Positions 23,813 to 61,370 of a DNA stretch of 64,000 bases are shown here, in pieces. The DNA is from Hydrolagus colliei (taxonomy: Eukaryota), in contig CM068743.1 in assembly GCA_035084275.1 (NCBI GenBank), positions 42,160,001 to 42,224,000 of the forward strand, read 5' to 3'. Position numbers and translations under genes: made by a program. The notes under the pieces were generated by a model, which saw only the letters and a list, made by a program, of their open reading frames with translations, had not been told where the DNA came from and did no database searches. Position 1 is the first letter of the stretch; the number at the start of each line of letters is the position of its first letter.

Positions 23813-25991
23813 CCTAACTAAATGGCGGAACAGACATGAAGGGTTGAATGGCATACCCCTGTTCCTATGTTCCTATAACCCAATGCAATCTTAGTGGTAA
23901 ATATGGAAAATAGGCAATAAATTGAGTCCTAATATGTTTTTGAGGAGAAAAACACACATTTGTACCCTGTATTTTTTCTAGTAATAATAATAATAAGAAG
24001 AAGAATCGTCGGAGTTGCTATAGCAACTGTCACATCAGGATGATGTCTGAAAGTGCAAATAAATTAACGTAAATGGGATGTGCATGTGTGGGGGATCTTG
24101 TGATTATGAATGTTCCTTAATATTTCTATTTTACTAAATATGCATAACGCCATAAGGAAGTTAGATTCATACAATATTTTAAATTCATTCAGATTGTAGG
24201 GACATACAAAATCTGACCATTAAAGTGATTTCTGACCTAAAGCACTCTGAATTGGATCATTTCTGCCTCGAGTGTATTGTATAAAATAATGAATTTGGCT
24301 CAATTCATCTAAATTCAGACTTGATGCTTTAGTTAAGGGACCAGAGACAAGATCTTAACATGCAAATTGTGTGCACAGATAAGGCACTACCACTAGCCTG
24401 CAATTGTGAATAATTCAAACAGTTTATGTTCTTTACCTCTGACCAGAGTTGTATCAGAAATGCTTGGAAGAAATCCAACTTTTTCTCTTTCTGCATGCAC
24501 CGCATGTAGTGTAAGACTTTTGTCTGATATCATTTGCATTTAACACTGGGAGGCAAAATGTTGAAGTTGACATGAACCTGCTGAAACGGATCTGACCAGA
24601 GAACAACCAAGGGAAGAGTGATGGAATGACATCCCAAAGGGAATTGGAGAAAATGACAAAAGATAGGCAGAGAGGGGAAATTAAGCTCTGTAAGTGCAAA
24701 TAGCATTTCAAAAAAATTAAAAAAGGGATCAGAGAGGTGCATAATAATCAGAGAAAAATAGACAAGGGAAGGATCATTGAACCATAGATTTAAGGTGAAG
24801 GAGAGAATCACAGTGTGGACAAGTATGGTAAACCTGTAGACAATTAGTAGAAGAAGCTTGTTGGATGGATAGAAAGGCCATCTGCCATTTGTTTTGTTAT
24901 GTAAGTTGGTTGGTGTGTCATTAATGGAGTCTGCTTTTTCAAGTTAGAAGTGTTTCAAGGCCAGTTACATTTTGAGAGATGCAAAACCACATTCTTCTTT
25001 CATTCACCCCACTTTTGTTATTCTGACGTTCTTTGCAATATAGAAAAACAATCTTTATTTGTCTTACAGTGTAAAATTTATAACAGGATCCAGTTTCTCA
25101 TCCTTTTATTTTTGCTGAAGTATTCGGTTTGAATGGATTCTAAAGAAGATTTTTATTTCAATTTAATTACTCTTTCGATCGCTTAATAACAATCATTTTA
25201 ACTGCAGATGTGCTGTGAAACAAGCAATCAAAGCTGACGATGAACGCTCACATCATCCTTCCAACCATTCTCATTCTCCTCATTCAGTTGGATTCTTTCA
25301 TCAAACAAACGTAATGAATAAGAATGAGCCAAAGTCGACCTCCAATAGCTTTGTAAAAATATTTCTGATTTAGAAAGTTCAAAGCATTTGAAAAACAATC
25401 AGTAAGTAATGAAGGAACATTTTCATAAACGTTTCCAAGAGGTTTTTATACACTCTCACTTGTAAACCTGTAGTCATCCAAAAGCATGAATTTATTCAAA
25501 AGCCATCAAGAAAAAATTAAAAGCTGTCTTGCAATCAAAGATGCATAGTTATAGTTAAACCCGCTTTCACACAGGTTAAAGGATTCCAAGTTGAGAAATA
25601 TTGTCATTTCACAAAATCTAGCTTTCCTTAATTTATAGTACAACCTCTCTTCTATGTTACAGGATCACAACTTCCAAAGGTGATGGAAAGAAATTAGTGG
25701 AACCATTTATTAGTTGTTTGATTTTCAATTGAAATAGTGGTATACCTTATGGTGCAATTTAAACAATATTTCCCTGTAAGCTTTTCTACTTGTTTTTATT
25801 AATGACTTTAAAAATGTAGCAAATGTAAATGGTCACCTGCGGGATTGTGCATGCAAATTTGGAATGACCCACTGAGCTGCAATATCAGAAATAATCAGCG
25901 AAAAGCCAACAATTGATCTTGGGTTTGGTATCTTACATGGGAGATGCGCTGAATACAAATAACCTTCAATACATTACAGTCTACAGTATGT

Positions 25992-26317
25992 GGAGCTCCT
26001 GTGGCTTAGTGGTTAGAGCACTTGTCTTGCAAGCTGGGGAGACCAAGCTGTGTTCAAATACAGGCAGGTCAGGGCGAAACCTTGGGCAAGTTTCCTTATT
26101 CCACACACCTAATAATAATCCCTCCAAAAAAAACACAGTAATAAACTTGGTCATTTGAATCCACGACTGTTTGTGGGACACTGTTGTGCGCAATTGACTG
26201 CCGCAATTCACCACAAATATACAGTCAATTCACTTTACAGTACATACCGTGAAGCGCTTTGGGACTTCGATAAGATGTGAAAAGCGCTATATCAAATGCA
26301 AGGATTATTATTATTAT
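25992..26317 (+). mobile_element. tRNA-derived SINE (young subfamily)
   Basis: Full head, body and GGATTATTATT tail. Confidence 0.9.
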
Positions 26318-27319
26318 ACCAGATTCAAAAAGAGATTTCATTCCGTTGCCTTGTCCATAACAGTATTGCAAAACTCGAGCTGTGATAAACCAGCCTTTGA
26401 CCACTTATTGCAACTGCCTCACAGTCATCATTCAGGGATTAATCCATTCATTTTGAGCTCTATCTGTTCTTTGTTTCAAATTTGTATGTTGTTCATTATG
26501 TCTTTAGATTAGAAAATCTCATTATAAACATAGAATGATAAGGTAATTATTTTTAATACAATTGCGATTGTTACTTTTGAGTAACCAGATGGCTCAAACT
26601 GAACCTATGGGACAATGATGTCAATTCTGACTTCAGATAAGCCACAATACAGCCAAGAGTGGCTGTTGGCACTTGGCAAACATTTGTCATCTCACCCGAG
26701 TTCAATATCATTCGTTAGAGCTCAGTACTTATGATGTGCCTTAATTGGTAATAATCTCACCTCTGAGTCAGAAGGTTGAGTTCAAGCCCTAATATTAAGA
26801 CTTTAAACTCACATAGTCTCCACTGACACTTCAATATAGTGTCCATGAGAATAAAAGGGAGTTTCCAAACAAAATTAACCTAATTTATCATTCACTTAAT
26901 TCCCCTACAACCTACAGTCACTACACAGTATGCCATGTGAAGCATTTTGAGACAGTATCCAGTAGGGAACGGCGATTAATCGGTTTTTCGATTAAACCCG
27001 ATATGATTTTCAGATCGGTGTGCCGATATGGTGATTCTAAAAAAACTGTTACATCGAGAGATTCGATTTTAAAAATATACATCGTTATATTTTTAATATC
27101 GTTCCTGGCAATATATCAATATTGTTGGTATTATCAGTGTAATGCGATCTTTTCCAGCTTACCTTGTCGCCGGCATTGCAAACTCCTAGATCTAGAGCAT
27201 GGAATACGCGTACATTCGGTGCGAGCGCACACTTTACTGCTTATACTCGACGTGAGTCGTGGCGTCTTGACAAAGTCGCATCGCTGAAAATTGTAGTTTG
27301 AAAATTTACCTTTCTCATC

Positions 27320-27680
27320 ATGGGGAAAAGAAGCCCCGTATGGGACTACTTTGAAAACAATGCAGTCAGTAATGGTGTGTATAGATGTACAGTTTGCAAG
27401 GTCTTGGTTAAGACATCTGATTCGAGCACGAGCAACCTGCGACATCACATTAAGCAGCACCACCCCGCCCAGCACGCTGCCCTCAGAGCGAAATCATTGT
27501 CGACAACAGCAGGAAGTCGAACCAGCGCTTCGGAGAAAGCGACAGGTAGTGGGGCCAGTGCAGCTCAAACAATTCCTGCTTTATTTAAGAGGAGAACATT
27601 GTACCAGAGAGGGGACAAAAAGTGGCAAAGTATCACGAACGCTGTCACTTTTTGCATAGCAAAGGAGAGCTTGCCAATGG
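27320..27680 (+). pseudogene. Truncated hAT transposase N-terminus with BED zinc finger (ZBED1-like)
   Basis: SPVWDYF...CTVC...STSNLRHHIKQHHP is a BED finger; ITNAVTFCIAKESLP starts the DNA-binding domain; catalytic core absent. The ORF runs on to 27907 in unrelated sequence. Confidence 0.85.
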
Positions 27681-27957
27681 CAAAGGACATTAATTCAGAC
27701 TTCAGACTACATAAAAATAAGTTGCATTTTGTGGCTGTAAGTATTATTTTTGTGTGTGAGAGAGTCAGACACACACATAGAAGCAGTGATAATCTGGCTT
27801 CTAACTCTAACAGTAAGACTGTCTGTCTCTCTCTTTTCTATTGTAATAGATCTCATTTACACGTGGACATTACATGCTACTTTCAAACAAGAAATGGAGG
27901 AGAATAAATCTCTAGATTTTGTTTTTGGTGTGTGCGTGTTGTATTTTGTGTTTAGAG

Positions 27958-28720
27958 ATGGAGGGAGAGAAGGAGAGGGGGAAAGTTGGGAGAGAAGGAG
28001 AGAGGAAGAGAGGAGAGGGATAGAGAGAATGAGAGGGGGAAAGGAGGGAGAGAAGGAGCGAAGGGAAAGGAGGGAGAGAAGGAGAGAGGCGAGGGAGGGA
28101 GGGAGAGAAGGAGAGGGGGAAAGTTGGGAGAGAAGGAGAGAGGAAGAGAGAAGAGGGAGGGAGAGAAGGAGCGAGGGGAAAGGAGGGAGAGAAGGAGAGA
28201 GGAAGAGAGGAGAGGGAGGGAGAGAAGGAAAGGAGGGAGAGAAGGAGCGAGGGGAAAGGAGGGAGAGGGGGAAAGTTGGGAGAGAAGGAGAGAGGAAGAG
28301 AGGAGAGGGAGGGAGAGAAGGAGAGGGGGAAAGGAGGGAGAGAAGGAGCGAGGGGAAAAGAGGGAGAGAAGGAGAGAGGGGAGGGTGGGAGGGACAGAAG
28401 GAGAGAGGGGAGGGACAGAAGGAGAGAGGGGAGGGAGGGAGGGAGAGAGGGGAGGGAGGGAGGGAGAGAAGCAGAGGGGGAAAGGAGGGAGAGGAGTCAG
28501 GGAGGAGACAGAGGAGACAGGGAGAGTGGAGGGGGAGGGAGAGAAGGAGAGGGGAAAGGAGGGAGAGAATGAGAGAGGAGAGGAGGGAGAGAAGGAGAGA
28601 GGGGAGGGAGGGAGGGAGAGAAGGAGAGAGGGGAGGGAGGGAGGGGGAGAAGGAGAGGGGGAAAGGAGGGAGAGGAGACAGGGAGGAGAGGAGGGAGAGA
28701 AGGAGAGGGGGAGGTAGGGA
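27958..28720 (+). repeat. ~760-bp polypurine (GA-rich) complex tandem repeat inside the hAT element
   Basis: Almost only G/A on the + strand; recurring GGAGGGAGAGAAGGAGAGGGGGAAAG units. Confidence 0.95.
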
Positions 28721-30957: not shown

Positions 30958-31664
30958 AATAATAATGATAGTAATAATAATCCTTGTAGCTCAGTGGTTA
31001 GAGCACTCACCTTACAAGCGTGAGACCTGTGTTCGAATCGAGGCAGATCAGAGCTAAACCTTGGGCAAGTTTCCTTACTACACATGTCTAATAAAAATCC
31101 GTCCCCAAAAAATCACAGTACTAAAAATTGACCATTTTCAATCCATGACTGTTTGTGGGACACTGCTGTGGGCAATTGGCTGCCGCATTTCTCCCATAAA
31201 TTTACAGTCAATTCACTTTACAGTATATTCTGTGAAGTGCTTTGAGACGTCGATAAGATGTGAAAAGCGCTGTATCGATTGCAAGGATTATTATTATTGT
31301 AATTGATATAGCGCTATTCATTTCTTCTACATATCTCAAAGCGCTTCATGGAATATACTGTAAATAATAATAATATTCCTTGCATTTGATATAGCCCTTT
31401 TTGAGTCTCCTAGACATCTCAAAGTGTTTAATAGAAGATACTGTAAGTGAATTGACTGTATATTTACAATATAAACTTGGCAGCCAATTGCGCACAGCAG
31501 TATCCCACAAACAGTTGTAGATTAAAATGACCAATTTATTATTTTTTGGAGGGGGAATTATTATCAGATGCGTGGAGGTTGCCCAAGGTTTTGACATGGT
31601 AGGAATTGAACCCAGATCTCTCGCTTGTCAGGTTAATGCTCTAACCACTGAGCTACAGGACTCC
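30958..31664. mobile_element. Nested cluster of three tRNA-SINEs (+ copy ~30985-31300; - tail fragment; - copy 31363-31664)
   Basis: A minus tail AATAATCCTTG...TTGATATAGCGC is split by the plus copy (TTGTA on both sides) and followed by a full minus copy. Confidence 0.8.
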
Positions 31665-47057: not shown

Positions 47058-47298
47058 GGATTCCTGTATCTCAGTGGTTAGAGCATTCTCCTTACAAGCG
47101 TGAGACCTGTGTCCAAATCCAGGCAGAGCGAAACCTTGGGCAGGTTTCCTCAATCCACACATGTAACAATATTCTTTTTTTTTAAAATTGGTCATTTCAA
47201 TCCATGACTCTTTGTGGGACACTGCTGTGCGCAATTGGCTGCCGCATTTCACCCACAAATATACAGTCAATTCACTTTACAATATATTCTGTGAAGCA
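47058..47298 (+). mobile_element. tRNA-derived SINE, 3'-truncated
   Basis: Head and body present. Confidence 0.8.
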
Positions 47299-48799
47299 CA
47301 GAATATATAGCACGGAGTTTGGACTGGGTAAGTATGCGGATGCCAGAGTTCTGAAAACCTACATGACCCACTTTAAATTAGGTAAGCAGGATATATCCTT
47401 CCAGGGAAAGTGTGTGCGTTCCATTCCAACAATCAATCTCTGAAATTTCCATGTGTAGGTTAGATGCATGAAATTCTCAGTTTGTTTGGATTTTTGCCAC
47501 AGAGTGGATGTCCATGGCCACCCTTTGAAAGTAACATTTTCAGTTGGCTGCACAAGGGAACTAAACACAAGACTACAGACTTTCTTTGCTCCATGATGGA
47601 AATAGGCATTCAGAAGCATTTCAAAACTATTGGAGCAGCAGCTGATGACAGTTGATTTATATCGCTAATCTCTCACTGTATCAAACCGACCATGAGATAA
47701 TTCAGCCTACTTATCTTCTGTCAGCACTTCTATTTCTGCATGGAAGAAGAGAAAAATGAAATGATTTTCTCCTTCTTGCTAGAAACTTTGTCACGATCAT
47801 GGCATGGATGAATTGAAGAGGTTAGACAGGAAACCTGACTGAAACATGTGCCACTCACTGAACAATCATATCAGAAGACATTCTTGGGGCTAAGTGGTTC
47901 AACTAACTGACACATGGTTCTTTCTCTCCTTTTCACTTCAGGAGACCTTGTTTGAAATCCAGCACCGGGACAAGAAAAAAAGCAGGCAACTTGTAACTGA
48001 CACTTTCACAAATGAATTAAGATCTGACGTTCGTACCTCATTCCACAATGGAGTAGGAATTTTCAGCATAGAAGTTTCCTTTGATGAGGATAGTTTTACA
48101 GGTTAATCCCAAGGGAAACCAATTGCACAACTGAAAATACATTTTAGAAAAGGGGATTTAAACCTTTGTGAAGCAACAAGCAAAGCAAGCTTTGCCAGTT
48201 TCAGTGAAGATGTATGGCGTAAAAACATGTTCTACATTGTAATACATTTTATGCTTTCCATTATCTGATATGTTGGTGCCATCGATCAATTTATTTTAAA
48301 AACATAATTTGATGTGATTAAAATGAAATAGATTTGGACACATTTGAAAAGATAAAAAGTACAAAAATGCTTCCATATCAAAAGACTTAAAACTAGCAAA
48401 AATGTAATTAACTTTAAGTGAAAATTAGGTTAATTGGATTATTATTAAAACATAACTTTCATCGCCAATTAATTAGCTGCTTATCTGTTTTAACTAATAC
48501 CAGAACTTCTGATGCTGATGGTACAAGATCAAGTAATTTGCTTTATAGGCAGAATTTTCAGATCCTATGAAACATTGAGTAACAGCACAATTGCAAATCT
48601 GAATTGAATGTGAGAAGACAACAGATAAACCAATTGACATTCAAAAAGTGCAGCTGAAGTTGTGAGATTCCCCAACAATGCAGTAAAGTTGGGATTTGTA
48701 AGGAAGTCCTATATCACATAAGTTAGAGCACTCGCAAGCGAGAGGATTTGGATTTTGACCGTGAGCAGGGCGAAAATTTAGGCATGTTCCTTTACTCCG

Positions 48800-49276: not shown

Positions 49277-49877
49277 GCTTACCCAGCTTGCATAAACATA
49301 TTCACTGATCACAGGTACACACACACACTGATCACAGATACAATCATTTACTGATCACAGGTACACACACACACAATGCCCAGGTCATTGAGTCACTACA
49401 ACTGTTTTCTTCGAATGCATAAAGTGGTAAGTGAAATTGGTGACTCGTGACAATCCAATGTCAATCTTATGTGGAAGGTCATTTGGGAGAATTCACTCAA
49501 GAGGAAGCCTGATCTGTTATTCACCAAGTGTGCTCAACCCAGCTCAACATGGAATATGTGAAAGCATTACCACCATCTTCCTGCCCACAGCTTGTCTAAA
49601 ACCTACTTCTGTATATCTATAGCCACTTTGCCAAAGCATTGTATTGTATTCTAATAACCATCTGGATCATTGAAACATTCTTCCAATTTTGCCATTGTTG
49701 TTTCCAAAAAAAAGCCATGAGGTTATGGTCCTATGTTACTGATTCACTAATCAGCAGGAATAATCTATTCTGTATTCCTCTGATAATCTTTCTGAATTGT
49801 AGTTGCATACCCCCACTAAACACATTATAAAATGGATGTGAGTATTATGTTATATGACTTTCAAACAAGTGGAGATG

Positions 49878-50446
49878 TGTCGTGGAATAACTCACAAAGA
49901 GATCAGGTTATTCATGTAAAACACAAACAGTCATTTAATATACTAACGGCCGAAAGGAGAAATACCCTCACAGGTCAGATACCCGAGTTGGTACTTCTAA
50001 AGAACTAACAGAAATACAACGGTTTATATCTTATTCGTTTGCACACCGCATGACAGTAGTATAAGCTCCGTTAACCAATTACAGCAATCCACCTAATCAA
50101 TAAAAGTGAATGTGGGAAGAGAGTTGAACTCTATTTACACTAGCCATGGGGTGCAAAAAGGGCAGCATCTATTAAAACAAAACTAGACAACCACAAGTTG
50201 CTAATTGATAGATTACCATTTTCAAAGAAAGAAGTAAATCGTCTTCAATGATCAGGAAGCAATTGATCACCTAAAGAATAACAAGCAGGGAATGTCTAAT
50301 TTACTCAAACACAAGCCTTTCTCCCTTCTTGGTCTGGACTATGTCATACAACTGACGTTTGCTGATATCCCTATTGACCTCTGGAATTTCTAAGGGAGAC
50401 TAAGAAACAGCTAACATGGTTGCCGATGTTTAACATGGTTTCCACA
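49878..50446 (-). repeat. 3' LTR (569 bp)
   Basis: Matches 57280-57848 with no difference seen by eye; candidate ATTAAA polyA signal at 49934-49939 (minus). Confidence 0.96.
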
Positions 50447-50448
50447 AT

Positions 50449-50459
50449 CCCCCCTTTTT
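50449..50459 (-). promoter_or_regulatory. Polypurine tract AAAAAGGGGGG
   Basis: 2 nt upstream of the 3' LTR on the minus strand. Confidence 0.92.
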
Positions 50460-50486
50460 GTCCTCCTAAGGACAAATAAAGTAAGG

Positions 50487-51864
50487 CTAATCAAAATTAA
50501 TAGCAGCTAGCCGAGCAGCTTCTTGTTCAATAGAATCCTTATCTAGATCGAATTCTCCAGGGTAGGATAACGATAGTAATGGAAGGAGGGCAGGGACATT
50601 TAAGTTTGGAGGTCTAAACATTTGAGCACACAAACAGTGGAAGCACATGACACAAGCATATATCAAAACAAAAACACAAATGATTATTATGAAACCTTGG
50701 ACAAAAGTACCGTCAAGACCTCCAAACCAAGTGTACTAAGAAGTAGACCCAGGAGAGTGTAAACTTTTAACAGCAGATCGAATATGGGTGCTTAAATTAG
50801 TAATGTTCTCTGAGGAATCAGGGATATAGGTGCAACATTCAGTACCTATTAAGGCACACGTGCCGCCTTGTTTGGCCAATAAAAAAATCAAGGGCCATTC
50901 TATTTTGGAGGGTGGTCGTTCGAATGGCCACTAATTCAGCACTAAGCTGTTCTAGGGCAGTCGCAGTGTCATTTGCAAGTTGTTCCAATAGGGAAGATAC
51001 TTTATTTACTTCTATTTGAGATCGAATTGTTCCATAGGAAGGGACAAAGGCAGAAGCAATCATTTCCCATGTAGAAATAGACCTACGGAACTTCTGGGAA
51101 GGCAAGGCTGGTAAACTTTGCAAATGACGAACTTGTGGGATCACATAAGCCAAATAACAGGACCCAATCCAATTAAGGGGCAACCAGGGATAGGCTTTTT
51201 GCCCACAAACAAAATAAGTGCCATTATAAGACACTGCTCGTAGGTCACCTTTCCAAATCAATAAACTAGGGCCCGACCATTGAAGTCCACTTGTTATGTT
51301 AGGCAACCCAGTTAGATTAAATATACCGAAGATAGGCCAGATATTAGTGTTATCCTTACTCACTGTGATCGTACCGATGGAAATATGGTACGAACAAAGA
51401 CTGTTACCCATAAAAAGACCATGTAGTGAAGTTCATACAAAGCAGACATGACCTAGAGTTACTTCGGTACCTTTATTTCGAGGGATAAACAAAAATGGAG
51501 GTAAATGACTTCTATTAACTAGGGGTTGATACCATCCTGAAAAGTGGGTCAAATTGTACCCTGCAGACTTCCACATGTTTGGATCAAAGCTCTCGGCCTG
51601 TGTGCGTAGTAGCGTTACATTTTTAAATTGATAGAACATCCATTCAATCGTTTCTGACAAATAAAAAGGGACTGATTGTACAGGAATGCCTCCTTTTGAA
51701 TGGAGAGGGATATGGGAGCATACCCAACAAGCTGATTGTCCTGTGCGGTTTGCAAAAACGTATGACATGTACAAATATGTATTAGCATGAATAGAAATAC
51801 GGGGTTTTACACTTAATAACTGAGTAGAACATACTAAAAGGCAATAATATAGATTCAACATCAT
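50487..51864 (-). pseudogene. env: env (gamma-type SU-TM), disrupted
   Basis: Signal peptide; CWVC in SU; KFRR cleavage site; LQNRMALD immunosuppressive domain; CALIGTECC (CX6CC); hydrophobic TM anchor. Lesions: TGA 51433-51435, +1 T at 50881-50887, TAG 50736-50738. Confidence 0.92.
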
Positions 51865-54800
51865 TCAACCAGTAAAAGGTGCTGGCTTGACGTGAGTGGC
51901 GTGAATCCAAGTATTTTGTCCTTTACACTTGACAGCAGTATGGGTTGTTAACAGGACAAGGTATGGTCCTTCCCACCGGGGCTCCAGGCAATTCTTCCTT
52001 CGAAAGACCTTTATGTAGACGTGATCACCAGGAGTGTAATCATGACAGGCGTCTTCAGTCGGTTTCTGCTGGGCAGCCACTACCTTGCGTGTGGGAAGTT
52101 CTAAAAGACTTTGTTAGAGCTACACAATAAGATAACAAAGCTTCATCCATAGCATGGAGAACCATTTGCCTAGTTGTTAATGGGGCGCTAATCGGTAGTC
52201 GTAAAGGACGACCCATAACTATCTCATGAGGAGATAGACCAGATAATCTGTTAGGATTTGAACGCATGAGCATCAATGCAACCGGTAAGGCTTCTGGCCA
52301 TTTCATACCCGTTTCAGCGCATAATTTAGCAATCTTATTTTTCAAAATCCCATTATGTCGCTCCACTGCACCTGTAGACTGTGGATGATAGGGACAAGAA
52401 AAATGCTGTGTACACTGCAAGGCTCTAAGCAATTCTTTAATGATAGTGCCAGTGAAGTGAGGTCCATTGTCACTGGATAAACGCTCTGGCACTCCAAACC
52501 TGGGGACAAAATCTTTAAGTAGAATCTTAGCCACTGTTATTGCATCATTTTTTCTGGTAGGGTAGGCTTCTACCCATCGAGAGAAAACATCCAAAATGAC
52601 TAAAACATAAGTAAAACCCATACATTTAGGCATGTGAATAAAATCCATTTGTAAATGGATAAAAGGTCCCCAAGGCTGCGGCTGTGATGCTGGCTGCACA
52701 GCCGGAGTCTTACCCGCATTATACTTATTACATATAACACACTGCGTACTAATTTTCACAGCCAATTTAGCAAATCCAGGTGCATACCAAGATTGCTGAA
52801 TAATGCTTAACATTCCCCCTTTGCCCGCGTGTGTATACACATGACACATATGGGCAAGCCAGGGCAACAGGCTCTTTGGGGCAACCACGCGGCCGTCGTG
52901 GGATACCCAGAGACCTGACTCGAGTTGAGAGCATCCTGCAGCCTTCCAGAGAGCAACCTCTTCAGAGGGTGACTCAGCCTGGGAATGTAGGAGAGATGAC
53001 AAGGGAGAAAGATTAGACGCAGGTTTAGCAACACATAATTTTACCACAATCCCTGCATTACCACGCGCAGCTGCTTTTGCGGCACGGTCAGCACGGATAT
53101 TACCAAGAGAGATATCATCTGTACCGGTGGTATGGGCGGCACATTTAATAATGGAAATAGATGAAGGTAACTGAAGAGCTTTTAAAAGATTATAAATCAA
53201 TTGTCCATGTTTAACCGTAGTCCCAGAAGAGGTAAGGAAACCACGGGATTGCCAAATAATAGCAAAATCGTGAGCTATTCCAAAGGCATAACGAGAATCA
53301 GTATAAATGTTCACAGACTGGCCATGGGCTACAATACATGCTCGGGTTAAAGCAAATAATTCAGCAGCCTGGGCAGAACATGTTGAAGGCAGTTGGCCTG
53401 ATTCCACAGTTGCGGTGGGAGAACAAATCGAATAACCAGATTGACTTTGGCCGGTGTCGGAACGCAAGCAGGATCCACAGTAAAGAGCTCTAAATCAACG
53501 TTTGTTGAGCATAGTCCCGTAACTCTGGACGAGGCAGTGAGACCGTCTGGGTTATAAGTTCACAATCGTGTGGTTCACCGTCGTCTTCAGTGGGTAAAAG
53601 ATCAGCAGGATTGAGATTGGTACAGCGAAGAATAGTAAGAGAAGGATCAGAAAGAAGAATAGCTTCGTACTTAGTAGTTCGAGCAGCCGTAAGATGTTGA
53701 GTCGCAGAACGAGTTAATAAACAGACAACAGAGTGAGGCACATGAAGAGACAAAGGGTGACCGAGAACCAAGGGTTGACAGGAAACTACAGCATGATAAA
53801 CAGCCGCAACAGCCTTTAAACACCCAGGGAGCGCCTGTGCTACTAGATCAAGACGAACGCTAAAATAAGCGATTGGTCTGTGGCGATCACCATGTAACTG
53901 AGTCAAAACGGAACACGCTTTTCAGATAGCGAACGAGTGCGCTCACTTAAAACATGTCCAAGATACTGAACACTAGGCTGACATAATTGGACTTTAGATT
54001 TCGAAACTTTATGTCCTTTACGGGCCAGTGTTTGGAGGAGAAGGATGGTGTCTGATTCAGAAGAAGCCTGTGAGGGTGATGCAAGAAGCAAATCATCAAC
54101 ATACTGAATCAGCACCGAACCTCCAGGAAATACAATATCCTGTAAATCCTGATGAAGAATGCGAGAGAAAATTGTAGGGCTTTCAGTGTATCCCTGTGGC
54201 AACCTTGTCCACGTATATTGTTTACCCTGATATGTAAAAGCAAACAAATATTGGGAGTCAGGATGTAGGGGAACAGAAAAGAAAGCACCGCAAAGATCGA
54301 TGACAGAATAATATTTAGTACAGGGAGGAATACAACTTAATATAGTCGCAGGGTTAGGAACAACAGGAAAAGCTGGTACCACTGCTGCATTTACCACACG
54401 TAAATCTTGCACGAACCGCCATGTATTTCTTCCCGGTTTCTTGATGGGTAAAATAGGAGTATTACATGGACTCACGGTTGGGATGATTACACCTTGTTGC
54501 AAAAGGTCCTGAATAACTGATTGGATTCCCAATGAAGCTTGCGGGCTTAACGGATATTGCTGTCGTCGAGGAAGTTGCTTAGTGACATCCACCTGGACCA
54601 CGAATGGGGCTGCGGAGAGAACTTTTCCTACCTCATTCGGTCTGGTGGCCCACAAACATGTAGGTACTTGGTCGAATATAATCCTGGTTACATCGTCGGA
54701 GGCCAATTGGTGTCGTTCAAAAATGCCAGTCATAGTTGTAAAAGCTAACGTAAGACAAAATTCATTATTTGGAAAAACAAAAACCTGACCTAAACAGGTA

Positions 54801-55663
54801 GGGATAGTTTGCAAAGGCTTTTGCTGTTGAAGTCGGAAAACCATAGACCCTAAGTCTTTTGGCTCATACCCATCATTTACATAGAGAGTACAGTGAGAAA
54901 CATTAGGGGTGGTTGCTTTGTATATAGCAACTGCTGCTGGCGAAAGATCCACATATAAAGCAATCCCTTCAAGTCCATAGTACATCGTATTTGTGGACAT
55001 AAAAAATGACTGTCCCAATGCACCAGTGTGCTGTTGTGCATAATCAGTGTCGTTTCCTTCTTTATCAAAATAAGCCGTACAATGGAGATGAGAATGCCAT
55101 TTATAAGGTTGAAGAGAAGGCAATAGTAAATAAGGCATTAATGCTGGTAAGTGTATTAAAGTTTGTACTATATGTAAAAGCTCCGAAGATAAAGTTGGAC
55201 TAACAATCTTCCACCACCAAACAATTGGACCTGACAAATCTTGAGCTTCTTGAAGTAAAGCACAAACATAGCCATATTGTTGTTCAGGAACTTGCAAACT
55301 CACACCATCATCAGTACAAACTAAAGTGCATCCAAGTTTACACAGTAAATCTCGTCCGAGTAAATTACAAGGAACACTTTTTGCGAGTAAAAATTTATGT
55401 TCCCCAGTCCACCCATGGATGCTGTACTCCATATTTTCAGAAAAAGGGATAGAAATAGGCTGTCCAGTAAGACCCACAACATTAATTGTGTTACCTGTTG
55501 CTTTAATACCAGGTAAAGTGGAAGGTTTTAGGGTAGAATGTGTCGCTCCTGTATCAATAAGGAAAGGAAGGGAAAGACCCTTAACCATCACAGAACAAAA
55601 AGGCTCATTAGAAAAATTGTCATCATCTCTCTGTGGTAATATACCGTCCGGGTTGTGGCACAG
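51865..55663 (-). pseudogene. pol: pro-pol (protease, extra domain, RT, RNase H, integrase), disrupted
   Basis: LIDTGA...NLLGRDLL protease; LPQG and YVDD RT; AQAAEL/YTDSRYAF RNase H; HHCC, LQMDF, SDNGPHF, AVERHN integrase; WEGPY C-terminus. Lesions: RT thumb deletion ~53910, two frameshifts ~53478-53505, frameshift ~52084. Confidence 0.95.
54707..55228 (-). other. Putative 2H phosphoesterase domain inserted between protease and RT
   Basis: LHCTAY (His codon 55084-55082) and SHCTLY (His codon 54895-54893) are two H-x-T-hydrophobic motifs 63 aa apart in an open frame; boundaries approximate. Confidence 0.7.
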
Positions 55664-56684
55664 TCATTGACAATTATTCTTAGGAGGCGAATTGGGGAAT
55701 GGGGCATTCATAGTAAAAGATGCCCAATTTCCCTGAGGGGTCGCATCAGATGGAGGTGGGGGTTGCATTTGATATCCTCCACTGTGCCCCTGCTGTCCTC
55801 CAGCAGTATTTTTGGGGCATTCTTTAGCCCAATGTCCAGGTTGTTGGCATATATAACATAAACCAGGTTTAGAATTATTATTTCCCCAATTGTTTCCCCA
55901 ATTGTTTCCCCAGCCACGACCACGACCTTGTCCACGTCCCCGGCCACGTCCCCTACCCCGACCCTGATAATTGTTGTAAGGGTTAGGGTTTGGGTGGCCA
56001 AAAGGAGCATACTGGATCAGGACGCGTTCGGGCTTATCTTTGAATTTTTGCTGAATTTGACGTTGACAATGCTGCAGAACGTTAACAACTTCATTCATAG
56101 ACTTAGTCTCATATCCTATACAAGCAGTACAAAACATTTTCCTAATACCAGGTTGCAACCCGTTCACAATAGCACTAATCAAAGCAGGTAATCCAGCTTC
56201 TAGATTAATTCCCGAATACTTTTCAAACACATTCCGAAGACGCTCAACATAATCACCAACATCCTCATCTGATTTTTGTACAGTACAATGGATTTTACCC
56301 CAATCGACATTTTTAGGAAATTGCCCACGCAGCGCTTCGCTAATTCTAACCCACAGTTGTTTCATGTGCTCTTCATTTGGATTATCCTGATCTAATGTCC
56401 AATCACAATTATTTTTAATCTTTTTCCATCTATGATTACCTAAACAAGCATCCAACATTGCTAATTTTTTTTCTAATCGCTTCACGTTTCCTTAGGACGT
56501 CTCCTAAGGCTGTGATACGATCTAAATTCCACGAACCATCTCTTGGGAAACTATTTCCCTCACACCGTGACCATTTTTCCCATTTCTTCACATACTGTAT
56601 ACTACCAGAACCATAATGTACATACATATATGCACATGGAATCCTTTTATTGGGAACCAAATCTTTACAATTACTTTTACCCAT
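55664..56684 (-). pseudogene. gag: gag, frameshifted and probably internally deleted
   Basis: MG N-terminus (myristoylation-type) with FPRDGS; MHR-like QKSDEDVGDYVERL; RG repeats; single CYICQQPGHWAKEC zinc knuckle; frame break ~56465. Confidence 0.9.
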
Positions 56685-56942
56685 GTTTTACTGTAGCCAA
56701 TCAAGACTTCCCAGGAAGAACAATTTTGATAATGCTAAATTTTCTTAAGTCCAATCAACTGCTCAATTGTCAAACAAATATATCTTCTGGTTAATTTACC
56801 AAAAGTATGTCCAATTAACACACCAAAACAATACAAGACAAACAAACACACAATAAACAAGAGTTTCGCGAACAAACCTTCAGTATACTATTAAACCCAT
56901 AGATTGCAATCATCAACAATATATCTATATATATATCATAAA

Positions 56943-57087
56943 GACTGGTTACTTTATGATCGTAGGGCCTGGTTACCCTACGGAATCAGGGACTGGTTAC
57001 CCCAATTCTGAATCAGGGACTGGTTACCCCAATTCTGAGTGCGGACTGGTTACCTCACTCGGAGTGCGGACTGGTTACCTCACTCTC
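56943..57087 (-). repeat. Tandem repeat array in proviral 5' leader (six CTGGTTAC-cored units of ~23-27 nt)
   Basis: Directly visible GGACTGGTTACC repeats. Confidence 0.9.
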
Positions 57088-57212
57088 CTTATACGTATAA
57101 CAGTAAAAACACTTTGTCTATTCAACACTGATGACGTATCCACCCATTCACACACTACACAGGAGACAGACTGGTAAGAGTTGAGAGAAAACTCTGAATC
57201 AACTCGCAATCT

Positions 57213-57221
57213 ACTCACCCT
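57213..57221 (-). promoter_or_regulatory. Candidate major splice donor (AGG|GTGAGT)
   Basis: Consensus donor ~35 nt downstream of the PBS, the usual position for the env mRNA donor. Confidence 0.6.
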
Positions 57222-57253
57222 CCCGTGTAGGCAGAATTCAGGCAGAGTTAGTC

Positions 57254-57271
57254 ATCTCGGTGGAACCTCCA
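57254..57271 (-). promoter_or_regulatory. Primer-binding site, tRNA-Gln (TGGAGGTTCCACCGAGAT)
   Basis: 18-nt complement of the vertebrate tRNA-Gln 3' end (ATCTCGGTGGAACCTCCA), 8 nt inside the 5' LTR boundary. Confidence 0.9.
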
Positions 57272-57279
57272 AAAAGTAC

Positions 57280-57848
57280 TGTCGTGGAATAACTCACAAA
57301 GAGATCAGGTTATTCATGTAAAACACAAACAGTCATTTAATATACTAACGGCCGAAAGGAGAAATACCCTCACAGGTCAGATACCCGAGTTGGTACTTCT
57401 AAAGAACTAACAGAAATACAACGGTTTATATCTTATTCGTTTGCACACCGCATGACAGTAGTATAAGCTCCGTTAACCAATTACAGCAATCCACCTAATC
57501 AATAAAAGTGAATGTGGGAAGAGAGTTGAACTCTATTTACACTAGCCATGGGGTGCAAAAAGGGCAGCATCTATTAAAACAAAACTAGACAACCACAAGT
57601 TGCTAATTGATAGATTACCATTTTCAAAGAAAGAAGTAAATCGTCTTCAATGATCAGGAAGCAATTGATCACCTAAAGAATAACAAGCAGGGAATGTCTA
57701 ATTTACTCAAACACAAGCCTTTCTCCCTTCTTGGTCTGGACTATGTCATACAACTGACGTTTGCTGATATCCCTATTGACCTCTGGAATTTCTAAGGGAG
57801 ACTAAGAAACAGCTAACATGGTTGCCGATGTTTAACATGGTTTCCACA
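57280..57848 (-). repeat. 5' LTR (569 bp)
   Basis: Copy of 49878-50446; TATAAA at 57425-57430 (minus). Confidence 0.96.
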
Positions 57849-58544
57849 GATGTTTGCATGAATTTAAGTGTAATGAGTCAAATGGATTCCTCCACTTCAA
57901 AGAAGACTCTCCCAGCAGCATGTGTTTGGAAATTTAGATACTTTGTGACTTTATTGCATAACTTCATGATCATTGCTGCAAATGATTTATTAGATGTGAA
58001 TTAATACTCATATTGTACCACTTTACGTTGCACTTAAAATGACTGTGGTTTAGGCTGTTGCGAATGGATCTACCATAGCTGATAAAAGCTTTAGTTATAA
58101 CATTGACGTTAACCATAGGAGACAATGGCACACTTTACAGCTCAGTCTGCTTATTGACACAGACATTCATTGATTTTGTTTCACTTCTGATGACCTGGTG
58201 GATTTGCAGACAAAGTGATATCTATATTCTACTCTTTAAATCGCAGATCTCAGTAAACAAACTAGCTCAGTGTGATTTGGGATTCTTTTTGCATGCTCCA
58301 AAGAAAGTAATCTGACAAGAAGGTGTTTGGAACAAATAAGTGTGCATAAATAATAATAATAATCCTTGCGTTTGATATAGCATTTCATCATGCTGTTGAA
58401 AAGTCTCAAAGAGCATTAAAGGATATAATATGAAGGATATATTATAATTTCAGCATCTTAGGACATCCTCCCCATGTGAAAGGCACCATACAAATGTAAT
58501 TTTGCAGTTGTTGTAATATAAAGTGGATTGACTGATTATTTTAG

Positions 58545-60992: not shown

Positions 60993-61034
60993 TACTTAAG
61001 AATATCTAAAGCAGATTGATAGATTCATATACCT

Positions 61035-61370
61035 GGAGCTCCTGTGGCTTAGTGGTTAGAGCACTTGTCTTGCAAGCTGGGGAGACCAAGCTGGGGAGAC
61101 CTGTGTTCGAATCCAGGCAGGTCAGGGCGAAACCTTGGGCAAGTTTCCTTACTCCACTTGCCTAATAATAATCCGTCAAAAAAAAACACAATAATAAAAT
61201 TGGTCATTTCAATCCACAACTGTTTGTGGGACAATGCTGTGCGCAATTGGCTGCCGCGATTCACCCACAAATATACAGTCAATATTCACTTTACAGTATA
61301 TTCTGTGAAGCGCTTTGGGACGTCGATAGGATGTGGAAAGTGCTATATCAAATGCAAGGATTATTATTAT
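61035..61370 (+). mobile_element. tRNA-derived SINE (young subfamily)
   Basis: Full length; GTTCGAATCC B box; AAGCTGGGGAGACC duplication. Confidence 0.92.

Follow-up and report, generated by a model that had tools for sequence, protein, structure and literature searches.

A defective, mosaic endogenous retrovirus with identical long terminal repeats, probably integrated in trans

The DNA stretch analysed here, referred to as the window, consists of 64,000 nucleotides of contig CM068743.1 (assembly GCA_035084275.1, positions 42,160,001 to 42,224,000). At 49878..57848, on the minus strand, it carries a 7971-base provirus of an endogenous retrovirus (ERV) family whose coding regions are heavily broken. 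The provirus displays identical long terminal repeats (LTRs), its own target-site duplication, seven lesions shared with other copies, a mosaic ancestry and an empty allele. It is probable that a genome which was already defective and recombinant was integrated in trans, with proteins supplied by another copy or by an infecting virus.

Shared lesions in a provirus with identical LTRs

The 5′ LTR (57280..57848) and the 3′ LTR (49878..50446) match at 569 of 569 bases on exact alignment. The identity stops at both LTR edges, and the LTR ends are TG...CA. The same four bases are found at 57849..57852 and 49874..49877, the upstream and downstream copies of the target-site duplication in the sense of the element. 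The original prediction of identical LTRs and an intact target duplication is thus correct, and the element has the paired repeats and 4-bp duplication of a provirus. Within 49878..57848 the gene order is gag-pro-pol-env, with a primer-binding site (PBS) and a polypurine tract. The 318-base left flank, which adjoins the downstream target copy, has one full-length match in the assembly.

Lesions were called against unaltered open frames from sibling copies. A total of nine breaks are present, in agreement with the list of gag, reverse transcriptase (RT), pol and env breaks predicted originally. gag shows a deletion near 56464 and a homopolymer-length frame change at the deletion junction. In pol, a 286-base deletion with a frame change lies in the RT near 53912, single bases are lost near 53501 and 53478, and the frame changes again near 52088. 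Premature stops interrupt env at 51435 and 50738, and its frame shifts near 50884. Of the small lesions, three sit in homopolymer runs, and one of these is private to this copy. Short repeats at the deletion ends, examined at their true offsets, are not convincing and no microhomology is claimed.

Sibling copies carrying the same deletions, which the original prediction had proposed to look for, are present in the genome. A search with the gag DNA of a longer copy gave 29 candidates, all of which were scored; the gag deletion is present in 19, eight loci span it, one is partial and one is divergent. Four of the eight spanning loci are duplicates of one old insertion. (Loci L017, L019, L020 and L025 represent one older insertion that was duplicated with its flanks to four places, and their LTRs differ by 20–25 substitutions.) A query across the RT deletion gave 19 candidates, also all scored, where six show the deletion with the same junction, 11 span it and two have a different 60-base gap. 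All six RT-deleted loci carry the gag deletion as well. Five RT-deleted copies with both LTRs whole have distinct 4-bp target duplications and LTR pairs that show 0, 1, 3, 0 and 4 substitutions, and for these reasons they represent separate integrations.

The small lesions were scored over 32 loci, with unscorable loci excluded from each denominator. The state of the window is shared at 53501 in 9 of 17 loci, at 53478 in 6 of 15, at 52088 in 12 of 22 and at 50884 in 8 of 23, and the stop at 50738 is found in 2 of 24. Only the stop at 51435 (1 of 23 scored loci) and the gag homopolymer length are private; these two could be post-integration changes or assembly errors. Seven of the nine lesions therefore recur in other copies. 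Lesions in homopolymers can recur by slippage, but both large deletions, the 53478 loss and the shared stop are not of this kind. Thus disabling lesions have been inherited by independent insertions, as in a trans-complemented defective lineage.

Mosaic ancestry, age and the empty site

Recombination was tested with 13 aligned copies and 211 informative sites. Four-gamete incompatibility rises from 0.17 for sites less than 30 bases apart to 0.47 for sites more than 1 kb apart, and this holds when CpG sites are removed. Linkage decays within 100–300 bases, and the observed compatibility of neighbouring sites is reached in 0 of 1000 permutations. Greedy painting divides this copy into 34 segments and the other copies into 11–37. 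No site is both fixed in the RT-deletion carriers and absent elsewhere.

The LTR pair of this provirus is at least two substitutions from all 50 other LTRs, a second identical pair is 9 away, and each copy keeps 11–74 private substitutions. An LTR tree has 6 of 42 branches supported, and the order of events was not drawn from it. The locus-specific LTR pairs speak against homogenisation across the family, and also against a scrambling that followed insertion. As later conversion or polishing would likely split or level the LTR pairs, the mixing appears to have occurred mostly before integration. By these sequence patterns, the copy is a patchwork of its siblings.

Over 6807 interior sites, 85 differ between this copy and its nearest sibling. 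Had in-place change supplied half of this distance, the LTRs would be expected to show 7.1 differences, and the probability of finding none, P(0), is 0.0008. Most of the divergence therefore preceded integration. The original prediction that the lesions are older than the insertion is borne out by this interior divergence without LTR differences and by the seven lesions shared with other insertions.

The absence of LTR differences places the 95% upper bound on age at 12 million years under the shark rate assumed by Han (2015; PMC4422223), or at 3.8 million generations when the rate of the epaulette shark (PMC10587355) is used. Identical LTRs are a weak clock in a slow-evolving lineage, and "recent" is to be understood more loosely than was implied originally. 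Because the clock is weak, the case for recency depends chiefly on the empty allele, together with the many solo LTRs within 2–9 substitutions. There are 368 LTR candidates in the genome, of which 40 were scored; 19 of 20 solo LTRs fetched have exact 4-bp target duplications, and some solo LTRs match a proviral LTR at every base.

Contigs from four sequencing runs were examined for the empty site: X1 and X5 (organism A; two samples from two studies), X12 (organism C, a related species) and X10. The contigs of X1, X5 and X12 join 49872 to 57848 and omit 7975 bases, i.e. the 7971-base element plus one 4-base target copy. X10 has no cover at the flank junction and was counted neither way. The empty site is thus found in other samples, where the original prediction had suggested looking for it in other individuals. 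The X1 and X5 flanks show 0 and 2 differences from the window in ~1.8 kb, and organism A is for that reason likely the species of the window. Since empty alleles occur in X1 and X5, the insertion has probably not reached fixation; an insertional polymorphism within one species is likely, as judged from the flanks. The claim of a recently active retrovirus is supported by this empty allele, but not tightly by the LTRs, whose identity allows the age of millions of years given above.

Family sequence is also found in the runs of organisms B and C at roughly 1–8% difference, and the family thus predates this copy. In X1 and X5, short-read contigs near 53501, 53478 and 50884 are partly in the state of the window, a weak reading that depends on depth remainders. 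Near 52490, in the integrase core, the X1 and X5 contigs that hold most of the depth are missing two bases of the window. A break common in the family is therefore absent from this copy.

Explanations weighed and the search for a helper

Integration in trans may be pictured in the following way. Copies that were defective but kept their LTR, PBS, leader and polypurine tract intact would have been transcribed and co-packaged in pairs. Repeated rounds of template switching may then have stacked the gag deletion, the RT deletion and the small frameshifts from different parents. Reverse transcription would have set both LTRs to one sequence and a borrowed integrase would have placed the DNA in the germ line, with Gag, RT and integrase coming from another copy or from an infecting virus. 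Retrotransposition by enzymes of the element itself is ruled out, as RT and gag are deleted.

A helper was sought in 42 loci of the one haploid assembly, made up of 32 family loci and ten other PBS matches, some of the loci being clipped by the fetch window. Open genes are few: with the reference ("ruler") copies included, gag is open in two loci, protease-RT in four, RNase H-integrase in one and env in three. Of the 17 family RT matches, one falls in a frame of 1224 codons without a stop, with no PBS or gag in the stretch fetched around that match. The ten further PBS matches belong to other families; none has the LTR described here and three have only the leader in common with the family. 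Long open RT frames exist in distant retroelement families. The helper may be absent from the haploid assembly, or extinct. The original prediction that a helper mobilised a defective RNA is therefore supported by the shared lesions, but the intact helper itself was not found among these loci.

Several observations weigh against integration in trans. Among the 42 loci of the haploid assembly none has all genes open and none has pol in one frame. The filled junction, the LTR identity and both large deletions are known from the assembly alone, the comparison samples being contigs. X1 is possibly the source animal, and contig depth cannot separate a heterozygous from a homozygous empty site. The interior has 17 private substitutions in 6820; private changes alone predict 2.8 LTR differences, and with P(0) = 0.06 they fit an origin in place only marginally. 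The scale on which linkage decays is that of short reads, so that some of the mosaic could come from polishing or gene conversion. Finally, loci L005 and L006, both on small contigs, have 3′ flanks identical at 200 of 200 bases, interiors 2.2% apart, different 5′ flanks and unlike LTR types at their ends. L002 shows a mismatched target duplication, as do three small-contig loci in all. The state of these three loci suggests ectopic recombination or misassembly, and the same flank with differing interiors in L005 and L006 means that exchange after insertion, or misassembly, does occur in the family.

The last of these points bears on the possibility that an intact or less broken provirus was integrated and that gene conversion, with other copies as donors, later introduced the deletions and frameshifts. 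The fine scale of the mosaic, L005 and L006 with one flank and diverged interiors, and the mismatched target duplications of the three small-contig loci all speak for conversion. However, conversion in about 34 tracts over 6.8 kb would probably have reached the LTRs too, for which potential donors are far more numerous (368 candidates), yet the pair is identical and locus-specific. Both deletions would in addition have to be converted into six loci, and the site is still empty on some chromosomes; conversion is considered improbable. That the identical LTRs and the indels are products of an assembly with collapsed or mis-polished repeats is considered very improbable. Such an artefact would account for the three small lesions in homopolymer runs, one of them private, and for linkage decay on the scale of a read, and the comparison samples are contigs with no raw or long reads among them. 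The 11–74 private substitutions per copy and the LTR pairs with haplotypes of their own are not expected from it, the target duplication agrees with the one copy found at the empty site, and the X1 and X5 contigs are, on the weak reading mentioned, partly in the window's state at three of the small lesions.

An old insertion that decayed in place, with its LTRs later equalised by LTR-to-LTR conversion, would have had time to do so under a slow clock, and such conversion is a recognised bias in dating (PMC11379458). Lesions acquired by decay in place would be private, whereas seven of the nine recur in other copies, two of them with the same junctions, by which this explanation is largely refuted. 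The empty allele persists as well, and the chance of such an origin is taken to be slight in the extreme.

A broader proposal is possible although on balance unlikely: a chimaera germ line may still be entered by a retrovirus family without any intact master, where freely recombining broken genomes lend Gag, Pol or Env to one another, linkage is lost within a few hundred bases and the integrase trims a U5 end of 8 bases, which is unusually long.

Structure, classification and significance

All parts of the element described below are on the minus strand. The 5′ LTR is of a short-U3 type; the youngest LTR type of the family measures 567–577 bp, with a U3 that is ~30–40 bases shorter than in the older LTRs of 599–612 bp. 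An 8-base spacer (57272..57279) separates the U5 end from the PBS (57254..57271) and is 8 bases long in 22 of 26 exact-PBS copies. The usual distance is 1–3 bases. The 3′ LTRs of the family end at the same CA exactly, despite this spacer, and the integrase would remove 8 bases if the primer defines the DNA end in the normal way. At least five other loci with the same PBS apparently have a 2-base spacer, and three distant relatives 5–6 bases, with LTR ends judged by eye. The exact PBS 18-mer, which we take to be of the tRNA-Gln type, occurs in 26 of 32 loci and has 36 genome matches. The polypurine tract (50449..50459) lies two bases ahead of the 3′ LTR. Signals in cis for transcription, packaging, priming and integration are present as sequence, and the packaging signal and the function of all of them are putative. 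The original prediction that the cis signals are intact thus holds for the PBS and polypurine tract, with the PBS offset by 8 bases, but the splice donor is a candidate consisting of a single consensus-like match near 57220.

The gag remnant (55664..56684), with its deletion of ~795 bases, retains one zinc knuckle (Pfam zf-CCHC, E-value = 1e-7). It is followed by the protease (55322..55663; Pfam RVP, E-value = 3.9e-11), a predicted CNPase-like 2H phosphoesterase in the protease-RT interval (54701..55306) and the RT (53496..54670; Pfam RVT_1, E-value = 1.4e-27). The RNase H and integrase region (51865..53494) matches Pfam RNase_H, rve and MLVIN_C, and env (50487..51864) matches TLV_coat (E-value = 2.6e-7). 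The 2H domain frame is unbroken in this copy. A model of the insert between protease and RT built from 15 sequences gives a CNPase-like fold (predicted local distance difference test score, pLDDT, 84.5; Foldseek match to mouse CNPase with E-value = 6.8e-10 and a TM score of 0.68), and both histidines are conserved in the 15 aligned sequences. The single sequence gave a pLDDT of 31, and a word-index search with the insert gave no match.

In class I ERVs gag and pol share one frame and are separated by a single stop. Here the gag open reading frame 55664–56491 adjoins open reading frame 53903–55663 in frame with a single stop between them, and a longer copy shows the same arrangement. The MLVIN_C integrase tail, the TLV-type envelope and an RT like that of murine leukemia virus (MLV) are further class I marks. 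The best PDB matches for the RT are of the MLV type, with an E-value of about 1e-65 versus 1e-38 for foamy virus RT. RNase H-integrase shows its best matches in turtle, hagfish, sawshark, Callorhinchus milii, coelacanth and amphibians, at 41–56% identity, and the best C. milii protein match is 49% identical. Members of the genus Epsilonretrovirus, walleye dermal sarcoma virus (WDSV) and walleye epidermal hyperplasia virus (WEHV), have accessory genes downstream of env. In the window the end of env (50487) and the start of the LTR (50446) are ~40 bases apart, which leaves no room for such genes. On these marks the element is filed as a class I, putatively epsilon-like ERV, outside the genus Epsilonretrovirus. 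In 13 copies the ratio of nonsynonymous to synonymous polymorphism (pN/pS) is 0.50 for shared variants and 0.71 for single variants, uncorrected for transition bias, and is only a hint of older purifying selection in the family.

Elsewhere in the window, a 201-codon frame at 27302–27904 on the plus strand lies next to a purine-rich repeat at ~27960–28720. The start of the frame resembles that of a BED-finger protein, of a kind that we assign to hAT-type DNA transposons. Many copies of a probable short interspersed element family with a tRNA-like head are also present, e.g. 25991–26292, 30980–31275, 47060–47334 and 61034–61346, among others.

In canids, spread by trans-complementation has been inferred for CfERV-Fc1(a), where an env deletion is not monophyletic (Halo et al., 2019; PMC6407205). 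The family described here resembles it in its young proviruses, of which some have identical LTRs, in stops and frameshifts that copies share in varying combinations, and in a common deletion that is non-monophyletic. It differs in that CfERV-Fc1(a) is a gamma-like mammalian family in which env carries the shared deletion and some frames appear intact, whereas here the deletions are in gag and RT and no locus examined is whole. Stacked shared deletions are also seen in SERV-K/MER11 of rhesus macaques, where 31 proviruses have both of two deletions, 36 have identical LTRs, younger LTRs show U3 deletions and co-packaging has been proposed (PMC11379458); each of these traits has a counterpart here, co-packaging as a proposal. 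Unlike the present family, SERV-K/MER11 is a class II virus and has two copies with intact gag-pro-pol (PMC11379458). The CmiERV lineages II and III of C. milii are epsilon-like ERVs in a holocephalan, but their two complete insertions show 2.4–3.3% LTR divergence and are dated at more than 50 million years (Han, 2015; PMC4422223). A CNPase/2H domain is shared with fish epsilon-like ERVs, where it is occasional, and with WDSV (PMC4977317, PMC9503650); the present element differs in that its env and 3′ LTR leave no space for accessory genes. Identical LTRs and insertional polymorphism are shared with ERVi (Wang and Han, 2023; PMC10435555), but that survey requires intact genes and would exclude this copy. 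It screened 13 cartilaginous-fish genomes, none of which is represented among the 37 host orders in the legend of its Fig. 2e. No literature on young or polymorphic chimaera ERVs was found, in a search with most subscription journals, supplements and repeat databases outside its coverage.

The mechanism is already described in dogs and macaques, and the new part is the host lineage, a likely holocephalan. RAG1 of this genome shows 93% identity to that of C. milii and 85% to its best shark match, which makes a holocephalan other than C. milii the likely host. The interest lies in this lineage, the likely unfixed state of the insertion and the depth of the mixing. Screens for intact genes would overlook such copies, and in these fishes identical LTRs date an insertion only poorly. 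What was known from mammals is extended to a likely holocephalan, a group whose published ERVs are dated at more than 50 million years (PMC4422223). The host lineage is probably among the slowest-evolving of the vertebrates, yet its germ line has seemingly seen retroviral activity within the lifetime of a species.

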